This document shows positions 2-22,426 of a DNA stretch of 64,000 nucleotides, in pieces; within the stretch, counting starts at the first letter, position 1; each line of letters opens with the position of its first letter. The notes under the pieces were generated by a model. The model worked only from the letters and a program-made list of their open reading frames with translations, was not told the DNA's origin and did no database searches. The stretch is from Methanobacteriota archaeon. Lineage in GTDB: Archaea > Thermoplasmatota > Thermoplasmata > RBG-16-68-12. The stretch spans positions 25,724 to 89,723 of the forward strand of contig CAMTUI010000023.1 in the NCBI GenBank assembly GCA_947084985.1, written 5' to 3'. A program made the translations under genes and the position numbers.

Positions 2-520
2 GTGCAGATCGACATCGTCCGGAGACGCGCGATCTCCCTCTCCCTTGACACGGGGACCGGGGTCTACGACGGACGCTTCCTGAACTACACGGTCACGATC
101 CGGAACTCCGGGAACGCTCGGGAGACGGTCTACGTCGAGATCACGAATCCGGACGACCTCGCGGCCGCGGGATGGGTCGTTCGACTCGGGAAGCTAGGCG
201 AGGCCGCGACCCTGATCCGCCTCCCGGACATCGCGGTCGAGCCGAACGCGACGGCCCAGGTGCGCCTCCAGGCCCGGACGACGGGCGGCGCGGGCGGCGC
301 GTCCGTCGTATTGGAGACGACAGCCCAGGACGCGCAGGGCGTCACGGCGAACACCGTGTTCACGTTGCGACTGCCGCAACTTGAATCGCCCGGCGGGATC
401 GGCGTCACAGGTCCGAACATCTTTGAGCAGCCGACGCTGAACCAGCCGCTCCTCGCGGTGGTGGTCGGAGCGGCCGTGGCTGTCGCCGTCGGCCTCGCCC
501 TGACCCGGAGGAGGCGCTGA
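2..520 (+). CDS. Cell-surface protein, C-terminal fragment (5' truncated by window edge); C-terminal TM anchor plus basic tail
   Basis: ORF runs to window start. Ends with hydrophobic helix LLAVVVGAAVAVAVGLAL followed by RRRR. Upstream region is beta-rich, CARDB-like (NYTVTIRNSGNARETVYVEITN). Confidence 0.5.
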   Translation: MQIDIVRRRAISLSLDTGTGVYDGRFLNYTVTIRNSGNARETVYVEITNPDDLAAAGWVVRLGKLGEAATLIRLPDIAVEPNATAQVRLQARTTGGAGGASVVLETTAQDAQGVTANTVFTLRLPQLESPGGIGVTGPNIFEQPTLNQPLLAVVVGAAVAVAVGLALTRRRR

Positions 521-1289: not shown

Positions 1290-1901
1290 TCAGGCGGACT
1301 CTAGGAGCCATACATCCGCGTGGTTTCGCAGCAGCATGCCGAGCTTCGTTCTCGTGATCCCGCCGCGCTTCAGCAGGCTCTCGAGCTTCGACTCCTCGGG
1401 CATCTGGACCTCGCCGTCGACCCATGCCGAGGCGACGGGCTCGTACCGCACGGGCTCACGGCCGACGCGCACGCGCGCGGCCGCGGCGTCCCGGAACGTG
1501 TGCAGCACGACGTGGACGGAGGTGACCGCCGCGGGTCGGACCTTGTGGTTGTAGTATGCTGCGACCTCCCGGTGGACCGGGGCGAAGGCGCCGACACGTT
1601 TCGCGTACTCCCGCCAGCCTCGTTCGAACGGGGACCGTGGGGTGGACATGCAATGCTCCGTCACCGGGCGAACCTCCTCGAACGTTGCGAGGATCGAATG
1701 CCCCTCCCGCAAGGCCTCGAGGAACTCATCCCACGTGGCGTACTCCTCGCGGGGCATCGCGTTCGCGAGGTTCTTCGCGAGGGACACGAGGTAGTTGTTC
1801 AGCCCGGAGACGCCCACCTTCGTCGCGATGTCCTCGAGGAAGAGGTGCGTCGCAATCTCGACGAACGGGTTGCTCTCGGGGATCCGCGTCTCCGCCGCCA
1901 T
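1290..1901 (-). CDS. Hypothetical protein, ~204 aa, paralog of the upstream gene (unknown function; possible V4R- or MEDS-like small-molecule-binding fold, unverified)
   Basis: Starts MAAETRIPESNPFVEIATHLFLEDIATKVGVSG..NLANAMPREEY. ATG at 1901-1899 overlaps the stop of the upstream gene (ATGA). The long six-frame ORF 1290..2390 continues out of frame through the neighbour. Confidence 0.6.
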   Translation of the reverse strand: MAAETRIPESNPFVEIATHLFLEDIATKVGVSGLNNYLVSLAKNLANAMPREEYATWDEFLEALREGHSILATFEEVRPVTEHCMSTPRSPFERGWREYAKRVGAFAPVHREVAAYYNHKVRPAAVTSVHVVLHTFRDAAAARVRVGREPVRYEPVASAWVDGEVQMPEESKLESLLKRGGITRTKLGMLLRNHADVWLLESA

Positions 1902-2521
1902 CAGCGCTCTCCCTTGATCCGAGCGCCGCGCATCACGAGGGCGTACACGCATTCGTAGTTCCGCAGGAGCGCCCGCATGTGCTCCTCGTTGATGTTGACC
2001 TGCGCGACGTTCTTGGAGGAGATCTTCGCCTCGCCGCTCCAACCCCGGGTCGCGAGGAGGAAGCAGACGAGCGAGTTGCCGGAGACCGTGATGTTCTTCG
2101 CGATCTCCTCCCGGAACCTCTCGTGGAAGACGCAGAAGTTGCAGACGGCGATGTTGTGGACGTTCTTGTTGTACTCGTCCGTCACGATCTTGTCCGCAGG
2201 ACTCATCCGGCCGACCGCGAAGCGCGTGCGGAAGATCGTGGGCACGTAGCAGCACTGCCGCATCGCGTACAGGTAGCCGACGACGTCTCCGTCGACGTCC
2301 GTGATCGCCATGTCCGTGAGCGGCGTGACCTCCCCCTCGATGCTGAACGCGGTTCGGCTCTCCCGCACGGCGACGTTGAAGGACGTCCAACCGAGGTAGG
2401 CCTCCTTGCCCATCCGGCTCGCGAGGTTGTCCCCGACCCGTTGCCAGAACTCCACGACCCCGTCGGGCCCGGCCTTCTCGATCATGTCCTCGATCAGGGA
2501 GGCGAGGGCGACGTCGATCAT
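1901..2521 (-). CDS. Hypothetical protein, ~206 aa, paralog of the downstream gene; Cys-containing C-terminal half
   Basis: MIDVALASLIEDMIEKAGPDGVVEFWQRVGDNLASRMGKEAY aligns with the N-terminus of the 1290..1901 product. Cys motifs RQCCYVP and VCNFCVFHE. Confidence 0.6.
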   Translation of the reverse strand: MIDVALASLIEDMIEKAGPDGVVEFWQRVGDNLASRMGKEAYLGWTSFNVAVRESRTAFSIEGEVTPLTDMAITDVDGDVVGYLYAMRQCCYVPTIFRTRFAVGRMSPADKIVTDEYNKNVHNIAVCNFCVFHERFREEIAKNITVSGNSLVCFLLATRGWSGEAKISSKNVAQVNINEEHMRALLRNYECVYALVMRGARIKGER

Positions 2522-2546
2522 GTGAGGGGACCTCGGGCCATGGGCA

Positions 2547-3335
2547 TCACACGAACGACGTGAGGACGGTTTTCATGTGCGTCCGCCATTCTCGGTCCGC
2601 CTTCTCGGCGACCGCGTCGCCTTCCAGGACGCGCAGCTTCTCGATGCAGAGGGAGACGAACCGATCCCAGTGAGCGGCCGTCATGTAGGGCGCCTTCGTC
2701 CCGACCTCGTTGTACGCCATCGTGACGATCTCTTCGACCTGCCCGGGCCCGAGGAGGGCGGAGAGCTTCGACACGATGTACCCTGCGATCTCCTTGTTCT
2801 TCCGGAACTCCTTCGTCTCCCCGAACTTCTCGACGAACAGGATACGGGTGAGCCGCTTCAGTTCGCCCGCGACGGCCTCGTCATAGGAGGCGAGGACCTC
2901 CGGTGTGATGGGTTTCGATTCGAACAGGTGCCGCACGACGATCGACGTCTTCACGACATTCGACAGGACGCCTTGCATCTTCGTGATCTCGACGGGCTTC
3001 GTCGTCAGGAAGACGAGGAACGCGCGGTCCCCGACGCCGGAGATGACCATCGTGCCCGCCTCGAACTGCTGGACGGACATCATCATGTTCTGCCCGCTCA
3101 GCTGGTTGCAGATGTGCGCGAGGTTCCGCTTCATCAGGTTGAGGAGGCGGTATTCGCGGGGATCGAGCTGATTCGGAATCGAGGACGCGAAGATCCGCCC
3201 GTCGACGCCGAGGAACATCGCGATGCCCAGGTCGTTCTCCTCCCGCGCACGGCCGAGCTCCGTCTCGAGGAGATGCTTGAGATGGCCGACCGTGGCGGCC
3301 CCCATCGTCTTGTCGACCTGGCCCGCGTAGGGCAT
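2547..3335 (-). CDS. Roadblock/LC7 (MglB-like) domain protein with ~130-aa C-terminal extension
   Basis: N-terminal half (GIAMFLGVDGRIFASSIPNQ...GDRAFLVFLTTKP) has the roadblock pattern and resembles the stand-alone roadblock at 25970..26335. The start abuts the KaiC-like gene stop at 3336. Confidence 0.55.
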   Translation of the reverse strand: MPYAGQVDKTMGAATVGHLKHLLETELGRAREENDLGIAMFLGVDGRIFASSIPNQLDPREYRLLNLMKRNLAHICNQLSGQNMMMSVQQFEAGTMVISGVGDRAFLVFLTTKPVEITKMQGVLSNVVKTSIVVRHLFESKPITPEVLASYDEAVAGELKRLTRILFVEKFGETKEFRKNKEIAGYIVSKLSALLGPGQVEEIVTMAYNEVGTKAPYMTAAHWDRFVSLCIEKLRVLEGDAVAEKADREWRTHMKTVLTSFV

Positions 3336-4226
3336 CTAGCCGCCCCGCTTCAGTCCGTACGAGTGGAAGATGATCTGGAGGGCTTCTTCCGGGGAGTAGT
3401 CGTAGTCCCAATGCTTCTGCATCCGCCTGATCCGCTCGATGATGCGGGGCGGCGCCTTCATCGCCTCCGCCGTCTTGATCGCTTCCTCGAAGACTTTCGC
3501 GTGGCTGCGCGTCTGTTCCTCCGGCAACGTCGCGGGGCTCGCCCGTACGACGATCCCGACGCCACGGGCGAAGAGGTACGGATACACGCCTTCCCCGTGG
3601 TGGACCGCGCGCATCTTCAGGAGCTTCAGGGTGCGGTTGAACGCCCCGCCGATTGGATAGTACTCCAAGTGGATCGCGCCGTCAGACAGGTAGATCGGCA
3701 GGAGGACATCCTCGCCGATCGTCTCGCCGGGACGGGCGTGCTCTTCGACCGTGCAGAGGACGACGCCGAGTTCCTTGAGCGTGTAGAACAGCTTGCCGAT
3801 CAGCTCGCGCTGCTCGAGCTTCTCCGCGGTGGCCCAGATGACCGGGGTCATCGGATCGATCACCACGCGAGTCGGGATGTTGTAGTCCGCGCGCGCCTTG
3901 ACGAGCTGAGGCAGCTGCTCCTCGATCATCTTCTTGAAGTTGCGGCCCTTGAGATGGATGAAGAAGAGGCTCTTCTCGTAGTACTTGCGCATGTCGAGGC
4001 CCATGAGGTCCGCCTCGCGCATGATCTGCTCCGGCGCCTCCTCAAGGGTCACGTAGAGGGCCTGCTCCCCGTTCTCGATGCCCTCCATGAGGAATTGGAT
4101 CGCGAAGGTCGACTTCCCGGTACCACTCGACCCGAGGATGACCACCGTGGACTTCGGCCAGAAGCCGCCTTCGATCAGGTCGTCGAGTCCAGGGATCCCG
4201 CTCGGCACTCTCTGTATGTCGGCCAT
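3336..4226 (-). CDS. KaiC-like RecA-superfamily ATPase (single domain) with ~60-aa C-terminal extension
   Basis: GIPGLDDLIEGGF motif, Walker A GSSGTGKST, Walker-B-like VVIDPMTPV. KaiC/RadA-like architecture. Confidence 0.8.
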   Translation of the reverse strand: MADIQRVPSGIPGLDDLIEGGFWPKSTVVILGSSGTGKSTFAIQFLMEGIENGEQALYVTLEEAPEQIMREADLMGLDMRKYYEKSLFFIHLKGRNFKKMIEEQLPQLVKARADYNIPTRVVIDPMTPVIWATAEKLEQRELIGKLFYTLKELGVVLCTVEEHARPGETIGEDVLLPIYLSDGAIHLEYYPIGGAFNRTLKLLKMRAVHHGEGVYPYLFARGVGIVVRASPATLPEEQTRSHAKVFEEAIKTAEAMKAPPRIIERIRRMQKHWDYDYSPEEALQIIFHSYGLKRGG

Positions 4227-4355
4227 GGTCGTGCGCCCCTTCCCGAGGCCTGCATCACATGGACGGCGAGGCCTCGCTCTGGGTGGATTACGCGATTCGA
4301 TGCCTGCGGCTTTTTAAGTGAGTTCCGACCTGGGAATCTACCCTGATAACGACCC

Positions 4356-4973
4356 TCAGAGTTTCTCGCGGACCGCGTCGAGCTTGTCCGCGAGTTCCTG
4401 GCTGCGGGCGGCGACGGCGACCTCGCCGCGCGTCTTCTCGATCAGGCTCCGCGCGACGTCCTGCTTCCGCTTCAAGGCCACGAGCGCGGTCGGGTAATCG
4501 AACCGCATGAGTGCGTCGAGGATCCGCTCCATCTTCTCGAGGAACGCGGAGGCCGGGTGGATCTCCCCGCGCCGAAGGTGCTCGAGCGCAAGGCGTCGCA
4601 GCTCGCCGACGACGTCCCCGAGGCCCAGGAGGTACGCGGTGTCCGTGACGCCGAGTTCCTTCGGGCTGGGGAGTGGTTCCGCCTCGATGATCGCGTGGAC
4701 GAGGAAGGCCTCGCACGCCTCCTGCATCGCGTTCTCGACAATCCCTGCGTGGAACAGGTCCGGATGGTCTTCGAGGAGGCTCTTCAGCTTCAGGACCTCC
4801 TCGCGGGTCTCGTGCAACTGCGTGCTGACATCTGCGCCGCGATGGAGCGCTTGAATCACGCTGCCGCTCAGGCGCGCGATCGTCCGGGACGACTTGATCG
4901 TGAGTTCGCGGACCTCGTCCTTCTCGTCGAGGCGGGACTCGATCTCGCCGATCACGTCGTCCAGGTTCTTCAC
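4356..4973 (-). CDS. Translin-family protein (start uncertain, putative GTG)
   Basis: All-helical ~205 aa. The DTAYLLGLGDVVGELRR motif resembles the translin/TRAX Y-L-L-G-x-A-D-L-T-G-E-L-x-R signature. The N-terminal 70 aa of the six-frame ORF are Arg/Pro-rich and likely not translated. Confidence 0.5.
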   Translation of the reverse strand: MKNLDDVIGEIESRLDEKDEVRELTIKSSRTIARLSGSVIQALHRGADVSTQLHETREEVLKLKSLLEDHPDLFHAGIVENAMQEACEAFLVHAIIEAEPLPSPKELGVTDTAYLLGLGDVVGELRRLALEHLRRGEIHPASAFLEKMERILDALMRFDYPTALVALKRKQDVARSLIEKTRGEVAVAARSQELADKLDAVREKL

Positions 4974-21826: not shown

Positions 21827-22426
21827 TCAGTCCTCGAACCAGGCGCCGCAGGTGCATTGGACCGCATCGAGGGCCACGTGGGTGCCGCATCGCGGGCACG
21901 CGTACGCGACATTCTCCGCCCCGGGTTCGAACTCCACGCCGCACACCGGACAGGCGTCCTCCAGGATCGGCACAAGGGAGCCGCACTCCGGGCACGCGGA
22001 CGTGGCCGACGTCGAGGCCGCGAACCGCACACCGCAGGCGCACGACGTCGCCTCCTCGGAAACGAACCGGCCGCACGCGGGACACTGGAACAGCTCGATC
22101 GTCTCTTCTTGCACCGCCGGCGGTCGGGGGGCGATCTCCTCGGAGACGTCATGGATCTTCTGCAGGTCCGCGAGCAGCTCCGCAAGGCTCCGGGGTGGCG
22201 CAGGAGGTTCCGCCTTCGGCACCGGGATCGACCGGAACCCGGCGCGCCCGGAACCGTATGCGCCCCCCGTGCTCCCGGCGAACGCGGTGCCACAGTGCTG
22301 GCATCGATCGAGCTCGAACGGCGTGAGCTCCCGGCAGCTCCAGCATAGGATCCGGGGAGCGCCGTGTGCGCTCTCACGACCGTCCCGTGGAGGCGAACCC
22401 GAGCGATCGACCGTTTGCGTCACCAT
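21827..22426 (-). CDS. Multi-zinc-ribbon protein (4 tandem CxxC-x9-11-CxxC modules)
   Basis: ATG at 22426. Modules CWSCR..CQHCG, CPACG..CACG, CPECG..CPVCG, CPRCG..CTCG. The 1105-aa six-frame ORF extending upstream is antisense to metG. Confidence 0.6.
   Translation of the reverse strand: MVTQTVDRSGSPPRDGRESAHGAPRILCWSCRELTPFELDRCQHCGTAFAGSTGGAYGSGRAGFRSIPVPKAEPPAPPRSLAELLADLQKIHDVSEEIAPRPPAVQEETIELFQCPACGRFVSEEATSCACGVRFAASTSATSACPECGSLVPILEDACPVCGVEFEPGAENVAYACPRCGTHVALDAVQCTCGAWFED

Follow-up and report, generated by a model that had tools for sequence, protein, structure and literature searches.

A conserved four-gene cassette of Thermoplasmata encodes a KaiC-family ATPase with a predicted roadblock protein and a pair of predicted V4R/Bet3-like paralogs

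Introduction

Several switch NTPases have a partner platform that reads or sets their nucleotide state: MglA has MglB, Rag has Ragulator, and Rab has the TRAPP longin pair. In the TRAPP core, Bet3-family subunits accompany this longin pair on Rab1/Ypt1, and Asgard archaea encode a TRAPPC3 of their own as well as roadblock proteins and small GTPases. V4R domains occur in PoxR, MopR, DmpR and MJ1460, and that of DmpR/PoxR is a ligand-binding input controlling an AAA+ ATPase. KaiC and other KaiC-family proteins form ring ATPases, and the KaiC-like ATPases of archaea are an abundant class with few known partners.

A role as signalling hubs has been put forward for archaeal single-domain KaiC-like ATPases (Makarova, Galperin and Koonin 2017, as cited in PMC5847659). 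In Thor-TRAPPC3, as in PoxR, a bound Zn ties the sheet to a helix (PMC10933270). Tran et al. (2024, PMC10933270) report that GTPase genes of MK-D1 generally do not share operons with those for RB, longin or TRAPPC3. Here we describe a cassette from a Thermoplasmata archaeon, neither an Asgard archaeon nor a eukaryote, whose parts, in contrast to those of the MK-D1 GTPases, are hard-wired in one operon.

Results

The minus strand of the window, that is, the whole 64,000-nt stretch of DNA analysed here, carries four co-directional, tightly packed genes (Table 1), the last two labelled here ParA and ParB; the open reading frames are as in an initial annotation of this DNA. Direct reading of the sequence also agreed with its account of the first two junctions: the TAG of gene 1 abuts the ATG of gene 2 at 3336/3335, and a 25-nt spacer (2522-2546) with GAGGT inside separates gene 2 from ParA. 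The third junction, annotated as an ATGA overlap, reads instead as TGATG, in which the A at 1901 is the sole base shared by the ParA stop and the ParB start; the tight translational coupling of both genes stays implied by this arrangement. Hence ParB begins at 1901, not at 1904, and its 203 aa are identical to database protein P0241.

Table 1. Features of the cassette and of the region directly upstream of it
Feature	Position (nt)	Strand	Length or basis
KaiC-family single-domain RecA-type ATPase (gene 1)	3336..4226	-	296 aa
Roadblock/LC7-fold protein, predicted (gene 2)	2547..3335	-	262 aa
ParA, first paralog (gene 3)	1901..2521	-	206 aa
ParB, second paralog (gene 4)	1290..1901	-	203 aa
Conserved non-coding promoter block (putative), directly upstream of the KaiC-like gene	4296..4350	-	alignment, 26 relatives
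GTTATCA, promoter-block element	4344-4350	-	
GATTCC, promoter-block element	4333-4338	-	
GGTCGGAA, promoter-block element	4323-4330	-	
TTAAAAAG, TATA-like promoter-block element	4310-4317	-	
GGCATCGAA, promoter-block element	4296-4304	-	

In other species-level genomes, DHVE2 and Methanomassiliicoccales-labelled MAGs included, every locus of sufficient length (72 of 72) has all four genes in the same order; the remaining 8 of the 80 related loci are cut by contig ends. This gene order is therefore far beyond chance, which rules out fortuitous synteny, and the four genes are shown to be inherited as a unit across Thermoplasmata; the conserved neighbourhood on which the initial annotation had made its reading depend thus exists throughout the class. 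Identities of the four proteins fall in parallel across lineages, conservation is very high, and no locus examined holds a second copy of the cassette.

The surroundings are less constant. Upstream neighbours vary between lineages (a translin-family gene occupies this place in 36 loci), a membrane-anchored CARDB-domain protein is the convergent downstream neighbour in 48 of the 80 loci, and conserved metabolic genes are absent from the vicinity of the cassette, whose GC content is uniform with its surroundings. In most lineages outside the window's clade an additional gene, hereafter gene X, lies between genes 2 and 3; its product is a coiled-coil protein of 426-960 aa whose C-terminal part holds one or two winged-helix domains, to which many lineages add an N-terminal C2H2-type zinc finger. 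Gene X is absent from the locus in the window's clade, and a search of the 64-kb window for a relocated copy yielded none (best match E=0.002, at 22055-22306). Comparison by hhalign of the gene X core with ParA/ParB and with the roadblock protein was negative, and its sequence-profile search against the PDB returned nothing usable. Neither a DNA-binding domain (Pfam and NCBIfam scans) nor a recognisable output domain is encoded by the window's four genes.

When the 150 nt that precede the KaiC start were aligned for 26 relatives, a block of elements (Table 1) emerged that is kept despite a differing upstream neighbour gene. By archaeal TATA-box conventions, we infer that this block acts as a promoter; the TATA box of the block is preceded by a conserved, palindrome-like element, and a G-rich Shine-Dalgarno-like run is found nearer the KaiC-like ATG than the block elements.

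The KaiC domain of gene 1 spans residues 7-228 (nt 3543-4208; Pfam PF06745, E=1.6e-44, 152.5 bits versus a cut-off of 26.6). As the initial annotation had noticed, KaiC-type motifs are readily read in the translation, that is, Walker A GSSGTGKST, the catalytic Glu pair in LEE (61-63) and Walker B VVID; they align with those of KaiC CI/CII, and by these motifs the protein is predicted to be a catalytically intact member of the family. Against the PDB, KaiC CI/CII matched with E of about 1e-44 and the single-domain proteins PH0186, PH0284 and SSO2452 matched too. In the Pfam and NCBIfam scans RadA or RecA gave E of at least 1e-4, far weaker than the KaiC domain match. Orthologues from the most distant lineages are 66-75% identical to the window protein; over residues 81-200 the identity per position is about 0.9. 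The C-terminal tail, previously estimated at about 60 aa, measures 68 aa (residues 229-296, nt 3339-3542); it has no Pfam match and is kept among orthologues (55-68% identity to the window protein, 67 sequences), its motif WDYDYSPEEAL being found again in locus L044.

Gene 1 does not reach the cut-off of any named KaiC subfamily in NCBIfam, the best match being TIGR03880 (KaiC_arch_3). It is not an archaellum ArlH/FlaH (52 bits versus an equivalog cut-off of 215), nor a circadian KaiC, as its single domain of 296 aa differs from the duplicated CI+CII and its circ_KaiC score of 74 stays below the cut-off of 546. The KaiC phosphosites S431/T432 fall, in the CII alignment, on non-phosphorylatable residues. 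Like ArlH, GvpD and Pyrococcus PH0186/PH0284, gene 1 thus encodes a single KaiC/RecA domain with intact Walker A/B and catalytic glutamates and, as in archaeal single-domain KaiC-like ATPases, has operonic putative sensor/output partners; it differs from them in its distinctive conserved tail and its position below the named subfamily cut-offs, and in that the partners are a roadblock protein and a V4R-like pair.

Gene 2 had been read as a roadblock-like N-terminal half plus an extension, and its structure model agrees: residues 17-138 (nt 2922-3287) adopt roadblock topology, with the order alpha-beta-beta-alpha-beta-beta-beta-alpha superposable on MglB/LC7, followed by an unassigned C-terminal domain of six helices at residues 145-259 (nt 2559-2903). 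At the sequence level, Pfam Robl_LC7 (PF03259) does not match gene 2 even at E<=10, a sequence-profile search against the PDB returned nothing usable, and the roadblock assignment appears only as JGI's COG-based label on some homologues. The model nonetheless indicates a genuine roadblock domain. As in MglA/MglB (MglC) of Myxococcus and Rag-Ragulator, the roadblock gene directly follows that of the presumed NTPase; unlike these systems, the cassette has no small GTPase, its roadblock protein is extended by the helical domain of 115 aa and ends in an invariant S-F-V tripeptide, and two V4R-like subunits are added.

The paralogy of genes 3 and 4, already apparent to the initial annotation, is unambiguous (BLASTP, 25% identity over about 200 aa, E=2e-13; hhalign of both profiles, probability 99%, E=5e-18). 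Two methods assign ParA, a two-layer alpha/beta protein with a 4-stranded sheet and N-terminal helices, to the V4R/Bet3/BcsD/H-NOX superfold, and ParB is predicted through homology to share the V4R/Bet3-type fold, as had been surmised. The alternative surmise, a MEDS fold, was discarded: neither paralog matches PF14417, the ParA fold is not P-loop-like, and the only MEDS match, a weak one (E=6.6e-4), falls in the KaiC-like protein itself. Pfam and NCBIfam scans of ParA and ParB gave no match, V4R PF02830 and TRAPP Bet3 PF04051 included; a ParA sequence-profile search against the PDB returned nothing usable, and hhalign of both profiles against neighbouring canonical V4R proteins, a comparison of low sensitivity with single-sequence templates, was negative.

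ParA identity is at least 60% across the class, and C90, C127, C130, H133 and C191, the presumed metal ligands, are invariant in 81 of 81 sequences. C90 lies just after strand 2, C127/C130/H133 are at the start of helix 129-142, and C191 opens the last strand; compared by secondary-structure position, this cluster sits in the region matching the Zn site of Thor-TRAPPC3/PoxR. At the equivalent positions ParB has S/H/L/H/D in the window lineage. A tally across 77 genomes revealed the canonical C-C-H-(C/D) in 24, the window type S-H-x-x-(D/E), with Leu-His as the middle pair in most, in 36, S-D-I-Q-(A/S/G) in 15, and two others, so that the metal-type site of ParB appears variable and degenerate. 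ParA shares with the V4R domains of PoxR, MopR, DmpR and MJ1460 the two-layer alpha/beta fold with N-terminal helices and, presumably, a Cys-built metal site. In contrast to them, ParA and ParB are separate polypeptides forming a paralog pair, have no PF02830 match, and their partner ATPase is of KaiC type, not AAA+.

An exhaustive profile search recovered only 109 representatives of the ParA/ParB family among 1.84 billion, and a metagenome scan with a narrower family alignment only two loci, both stand-alone. The family has no Pfam model, its signature is CPF...PFC-x2-H-x3-R...C-x-Y, and V4R, TRAPP and HNOB models gave 0 matches to 44 distant members. Some members are fused to a KaiC domain (P0441), an Arf-like GTPase (P0467) or a winged helix (P0457), and the DUF7343 winged helix is among the domains fused or adjacent to distant ParA-like proteins; Hodarchaeales and Thorarchaeota hold multidomain members. 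A roadblock profile (hhalign) and a Pfam scan detected nothing in the middle regions of P0467 and P0453, where a roadblock/longin-like domain had seemed possible. Among neighbours, P0407 has, in two contexts, a KaiC-like/DUF7504 gene directly before and a winged-helix gene directly after, Robl_LC7 genes directly precede P0409 and P0429, and a Pfam V4R gene directly follows P0421. Locus L089 aligns in a row an Arf/Ras GTPase, Robl_LC7, V4R (PF02830) and a ParA-like protein, to all appearances the architecture of the cassette with a GTPase as NTPase; the ParA motif C...C-x2-C-x2-H...C differs from the C-terminal Cys cluster of the canonical V4R protein of this locus. Two of the 11 distant contexts examined have no NTPase, roadblock, V4R or winged-helix partner. 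By gene content, the distant family thus seems repeatedly linked to switch NTPases and roadblock proteins, and these fusions and neighbours, with KaiC-like, GTPase, roadblock and winged-helix proteins, support a functional linkage of the cassette parts.

Discussion

We propose, with a probability of roughly one half, that the four genes encode subunits of one nucleotide-driven regulatory complex; the regulatory function itself is what we infer from the data above. The KaiC-like protein would form a ring ATPase whose ATP/ADP state is the switch, and the roadblock protein would dimerise into a platform reading or setting this state. ParA and ParB would pair through their N-terminal helices as an asymmetric heterodimer, like Bet3-family and V4R proteins, and their invariable adjacency may point to dimerisation of the Bet3-Trs33 type. 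In this heterodimer, ParA would hold a structural Zn-type site shaping a ligand pocket and ParB would be the degenerate partner; the pair would therefore supply a small-molecule, metal or redox input, by analogy with the V4R domain of DmpR/PoxR, or a scaffold surface to the ATPase. The output in most other Thermoplasmata lineages would probably be the gene X protein, and, since gene X is absent at the locus, this partner would be unlinked or dispensable in the window's clade. Very high conservation and the lack of a second copy are more in keeping with a housekeeping machine than with a sensor tied to a particular environment.

By analogy, the parts list resembles that of TRAPP, Ragulator or MglAB with a KaiC RecA-fold ATPase in the small-GTPase slot. 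Paralogous Bet3/V4R subunits, a platform and an NTPase are common to the cassette, the TRAPP core and Asgard TRAPPC3; ParA further recalls Thor-TRAPPC3 in its Cys-rich presumed metal site in the sheet-to-helix region, and remote relatives of ParA/ParB are found in multidomain proteins of Hodarchaeales and Thorarchaeota and in the Arf-GTPase fusion. However, the NTPase of the cassette is not a Ras-superfamily GTPase and its platform is roadblock, not longin. With no GTPase, Rab/Ypt or other, in the cassette or the flanks inspected, it is not a TRAPP complex proper. Doubtful as we consider it, the cassette could encode a true TRAPP/Ragulator-like heteromer, in which a Bet3/V4R heterodimer on a roadblock dimer controls the nucleotide cycle of a hexameric KaiC, and a Bet3-like pair plus a roadblock/longin platform would be an ancient NTPase-agnostic chassis outside Asgard; eukaryotic TRAPP and the Asgard GTPase-linked versions would then be its small-GTPase specialisation.

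It is unlikely that the cassette, joined in other lineages by the coiled-coil protein, builds a structural or cytoskeletal scaffold, intracellular or membrane-proximal. ParA/ParB would assemble in the manner of BcsD, an octamer-forming protein that builds beads-on-a-string filaments with BcsH, while the KaiC-like ATPase assembles or remodels the structure and the roadblock protein is an adaptor, with no ligand sensing. The long coiled-coil protein of the ancestral cassette, a conservation level suggestive of a core cellular structure and the membrane-anchored CARDB neighbour agree with such a scaffold, but the other four genes remain strongly constrained in the window's clade without the coiled-coil gene at the locus, the distant family adjoins switch NTPases, roadblock and winged-helix proteins rather than filament or secretion genes, and the ParA Cys/His cluster resembles the Zn site of V4R/TRAPPC3, the proteins that the comparison covered.

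Also improbable is a DNA or chromosome machine, with the RecA-superfamily ATPase and gene X acting in locus-specific transcription control or chromosome organisation and the roadblock and V4R-like proteins as accessory regulators. Against the winged helices and zinc finger of gene X, the winged helices fused or adjacent to distant ParA-like proteins (P0457, DUF7343) and the palindrome-like element upstream of the TATA box stand the four genes of the window, devoid of DNA-binding domains, an ATPase far closer to KaiC than to RadA/RecA, and the lack of nuclease, helicase or SMC partners; if gene X is a mere transcriptional output, this explanation overlaps with the regulatory complex.

We regard as very unlikely that ParA/ParB are catalytic, their ATPase and roadblock neighbours regulating or maturing the pair, and that the ParA Cys/His cluster is catalytic or holds a cofactor. 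The V4R/Bet3 superfold clan does include an enzyme, ATC hydrolase, and V4R was named for a proposed 4-vinyl reductase. MetOD1, a V4R relative that might be enzymatic, shares a Cys cluster with ATC hydrolase (Galperin et al. 2018, PMC5847659), the five invariant ParA residues exceed the need of a four-ligand structural site, and a His/His/Asp set occupies the ParB site in the window's clade. Nevertheless, conserved metabolic genes are missing nearby and upstream neighbours differ by lineage, whole lineages freely lose the ParB site, and the solved relatives PoxR and Thor-TRAPPC3 use such a site structurally. Finally, a mobile defence or accessory island, that is, an anti-phage or stress module with a P-loop ATPase, is effectively refuted: nothing but a weak, generic P-loop hit between the ATPase and PADLOC mad8 (E=6e-6, 24 bits) speaks for it, and against it stand 0 PADLOC matches for the other three proteins, flanks that partly persist (translin-family, CARDB), a parallel fall in identity of the four highly conserved proteins and uniform GC.

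Returning to the regulatory complex, every testable part of the initial annotation's reading held. It had not recognised the combination as a described system, and a KaiC ATPase with a roadblock protein and a V4R-like pair was not found in the literature searched, which lay outside the 2017 KaiC survey, where a KaiC-roadblock neighbourhood may be mentioned. The cassette gives one KaiC-like ATPase of archaea a concrete, conserved set of partners encoded in its own operon, and it brings to light a family that structurally belongs with V4R/Bet3 and is apparently linked to switch NTPases and roadblock proteins. Such hard-wired cassettes name the proteins to co-express, whereas Asgard GTPases mostly have no operonic partners. 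The family, which has members in multidomain proteins of Hodarchaeales/Thorarchaeota and in operons with GTPase, roadblock and V4R genes, bears on a current question of eukaryogenesis, namely the wiring of TRAPP-like and Ragulator-like modules before eukaryotes arose.

A four-gene cassette with conserved order in Thermoplasmata

The initial annotation described an operon coupling a KaiC-like ATPase to a roadblock protein and two paralogs, here termed ParA and ParB. In this G+C-rich window (~65%), the TAG stop of the KaiC-like gene abuts the ATG of the roadblock gene, and 25 nt including GAGGT lie between the roadblock gene and ParA. The ParA stop and ParB ATG overlap as TGATG with one common base at 1901, and ParB therefore extends from 1290 to 1901 and encodes 203 aa. 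This junction had been wrongly recorded as ATGA/1904, the sole error in a description that otherwise holds. In the 129 nt preceding the KaiC-like gene, several blocks are shared with 26 relatives, also when the neighboring upstream gene is a different one, and this region is probably a promoter belonging to the cassette itself. Just upstream of the TATA-like TTAAAAAG lies a palindrome-like element (GATTCC-N4-GGTCGGAAT in relatives), a candidate operator through which a transcription factor may control the cassette.

Coordinates and arrangement of the cassette, its neighbors and related modules (window positions unless a locus is named; P-numbers, database proteins; L-numbers, other loci)
Feature	Position	Strand	Remarks
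KaiC-like gene	3336-4226	-	ORF
Roadblock gene	2547-3335	-	ORF
S-F-V end of roadblock gene	2547-2555	-	last three codons
ParA gene	1901-2521	-	ORF
ParB gene	1290-1901	-	ORF, 203 aa, same as P0241
Conserved upstream blocks	4296-4350	-	GTTATCA; GATTCC...GGTCGGAA; TATA-like TTAAAAAG at 4310-4317; GGCATCGAA
CARDB-domain protein	522-1289, plus partial ORF 2-520	+	converges on ParB
Translin-family gene	4356-4946	-	Pfam PF01997, 40 bits, above cut-off; directly upstream of cassette
Gene X	L034-L080, e.g. L044 4008-5738, L076 1320-2657, L066 3357-5999		absent from window 2522-2546
L089 module (metagenomic contig)	L089 2-2204	one strand	Arf/Ras GTPase, Robl_LC7, V4R (PF02830), ParA-like, consecutive
P0441			KaiC domain fused to ParA-like domain
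P0467			Arf-family GTPase fused to ParA-like domain; adjoins another Ras/Arf GTPase
P0457			winged helix (DUF7347) fused to ParA-like domain
P0453, P0458			~500-aa multidomain proteins, Hodarchaeales and Thorarchaeota
P0407			after short KaiC-like/DUF7504 gene, before winged-helix gene; two different contexts
P0409, P0429			each directly after Robl_LC7 gene
P0421			directly before Pfam V4R gene
ICMT/PEMT-family methyltransferases	L083 1-543; L084 1372-2001; L085 3018-3887		membrane proteins
DUF2226 protein	L092/L093 3134-3640		followed by Robl_LC7 gene, then ParA-like gene

To assess synteny, we took one genome per species and fetched the best 80 of 134 genomes with a ParA relative. All 80 were Thermoplasmata-type MAGs, including DHVE2/Aciduliprofundum-like genomes, Methanomassiliicoccales-labelled bins and the RBG-16-type soil/sediment lineage, which is the closest to the window. 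In this set, tblastn recovered the KaiC-like, roadblock, ParA and ParB genes in the same order in every sufficiently long locus (72/72); contig ends interrupt the cassette in the remaining eight. The KaiC-like protein of the most distant lineages is 66-75% identical to that of the window; the corresponding ranges are 60-64% for ParA, 46-52% for ParB and 36-47% for the roadblock protein.

In 35 loci, which make up the window's clade, the roadblock gene is immediately followed by ParA. In the others, the gap is filled by one gene (gene X) of 426-960 aa where the full ORF was recovered, and shorter or ORF-interrupted in L034, L036 and L038 (about 340 aa of matching sequence). Its product combines coiled coils with a strongly conserved ~130-aa core (KIPPxILExVY...TSGSELF...LISAKQ...KNFRAMIK.KSQE), for which no homologue was detected, and carries one or two winged-helix domains at its C-terminus; an N-terminal C2H2-type zinc finger is frequent. 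No gene X homologue was found within the 64-kb window; in the window's clade, the gene has been lost or has moved elsewhere. At the ParB end of the cassette, the stop codon of a CARDB protein, which has a signal peptide and, at its C-terminus, a membrane anchor, abuts that of ParB at 1289/1290. A homologue converges at the same place in 48/80 loci, DHVE2 bins included (24-30% identity), which may reflect either a functional link to the cassette or merely conserved gene order. The translin-family gene lies immediately upstream of the cassette or slightly farther away in 36/80 loci, mainly in the window's clade, and is outside the conserved module in distant lineages; purD-like and folD-like ORFs were recognized further upstream of it by inspection only.

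The ATPase and the roadblock protein

Residues 7-228 of the KaiC-like protein match Pfam KaiC (E=1.6e-44) and both KaiC domains in PDB (E about 1e-44), with Walker A, the catalytic Glu pair and Walker B all intact. The protein scores below the cut-off of every NCBIfam KaiC subfamily, ArlH included, and belongs among the KaiC-like proteins of archaea for which a role as signalling hubs has been proposed. With only one domain, and with none of the KaiC phosphosites when aligned to PDB KaiC, it is not part of a circadian KaiC system. Its tail (residues 229-296) yielded no family match and is kept in orthologues, including a WDYDYSPEEAL motif.

The roadblock protein has no Pfam match. Its AlphaFold2 model (pLDDT 78) shows residues 17-138 in a roadblock topology, with a six-helix domain after them. 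The C-terminal S-F-V never varies among 31 aligned homologues, and its conservation across 71 loci is 97%, against only about 39% for the 40 residues before it; this contrast suggests a docking peptide.

ParA and ParB form a separate family within the V4R superfold

ParA and ParB are indeed paralogs (BLASTP E=2e-13; profile-profile probability 99%), and searches of Pfam, NCBIfam and PDB sequences gave no match to either. ParA was modelled with confidence (pLDDT 88, pTM 0.85), and the top 50 Foldseek matches of the model all fall in one superfold, V4R/Bet3; the predicted likeness is remote but consistent between two methods. ParA/ParB is a separate family inside this superfold and not strict V4R (PF02830).

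Residues C90, C127, C130, H133 and C191 of ParA are invariant in 81/81 sequences and map in the model after strand 2, at a helix start and to the first residue of the last strand. In Thor-TRAPPC3 and PoxR, zinc in the corresponding region tethers sheet to helix (PMC10933270). The equivalent site of ParB is evolutionarily labile: among 77 genomes, it reads as the canonical C-C-H-(C/D) in 24, S-H-x-x-(D/E) in 36 (mostly with Leu-His in the middle, as in the window) and S-D-I-Q-(A/S/G) in 15, and no ligand is left in DHVE2 lineages. In the window's clade, Cys/Cys/His/Cys has become Ser/His/Leu/Asp, with a new His one residue past the lost one (site positions plus new His are residues 90, 130, 133, 134 and 196, true numbering); this leaves a His/His/Asp set, which may be either a metal site of another kind or a dead site. 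Because the ParA site is invariant and that of ParB labile, the two proteins look like the constrained and the degenerate subunit, respectively, of an asymmetric heterodimer.

Relatives of the paralogs outside Thermoplasmata

Only 109 paralog-family proteins emerged when 1.84 billion cluster representatives were searched exhaustively with a profile. The remote members keep the signature CPF ... PFC-x2-H-x3-R ... C-x-Y, and none of them matches the Pfam V4R, TRAPP or HNOB models. The contexts of P0416 and L096 revealed none of the NTPase, roadblock, V4R or winged-helix partners seen around other members. L089 has the same architecture as the window cassette, except that its NTPase is a small GTPase and one member of the pair is a canonical V4R protein. 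Operonic GTPase-roadblock-V4R modules of this kind are reported to be mostly missing from MK-D1, a cultured Asgard archaeon whose GTPase genes do not, as a rule, share operons with roadblock, longin or TRAPPC3 genes (Tran et al. 2024, PMC10933270).

Membrane methyltransferases of the ICMT/PEMT family were also found near ParA-like modules: immediately upstream in L083, separated by just a 49-aa ORF from a KaiC-like/DUF7504 and ParA-like pair in L084, and two genes upstream of a Robl_LC7 and ParA-like pair in L085. This family takes in isoprenylcysteine carboxyl methyltransferase, and eukaryotic ICMT processes prenylated small GTPases; the proximity may be coincidental. In L092/L093, a protein of DUF2226, an archaeal family whose function is not known, may be the NTPase-slot component.

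A putative ATPase-driven switch

The anatomy and comparative genomics of the cassette are solid; what we infer is its function, namely that proteins encoded together also assemble, sense and switch. The most economical reading is one complex formed by all four products. The KaiC-type ring ATPase would act as a nucleotide-dependent switch, and the roadblock dimer as a platform facing the NTPase, a role established for roadblock/longin proteins in MglB-MglA, Ragulator-Rag and the TRAPP longin pair with Rab. The ParA-ParB heterodimer, with its predicted V4R/Bet3 fold, would either supply the input, by responding to a ligand, a metal or the redox state, or serve as a scaffold, and gene X is probably the output in lineages carrying it.

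Other readings are kept open, namely that ParA/ParB are a BcsD-like structural scaffold or a metalloenzyme pair, or that the cassette is a DNA-directed machine. By parts list, the cassette is akin to TRAPP, Ragulator and MglAB; a TRAPP complex is ruled out because GTPase, longin subunit and TRAPP-model match are all lacking. A defence island was rejected, since PADLOC reported nothing beyond a generic P-loop match and inheritance looks vertical. Full-text searches found no paper describing KaiC, roadblock and V4R-like operons, a passing mention in a 2017 KaiC survey being possible. The cassette is relevant to how TRAPP-like modules evolved before eukaryotes.
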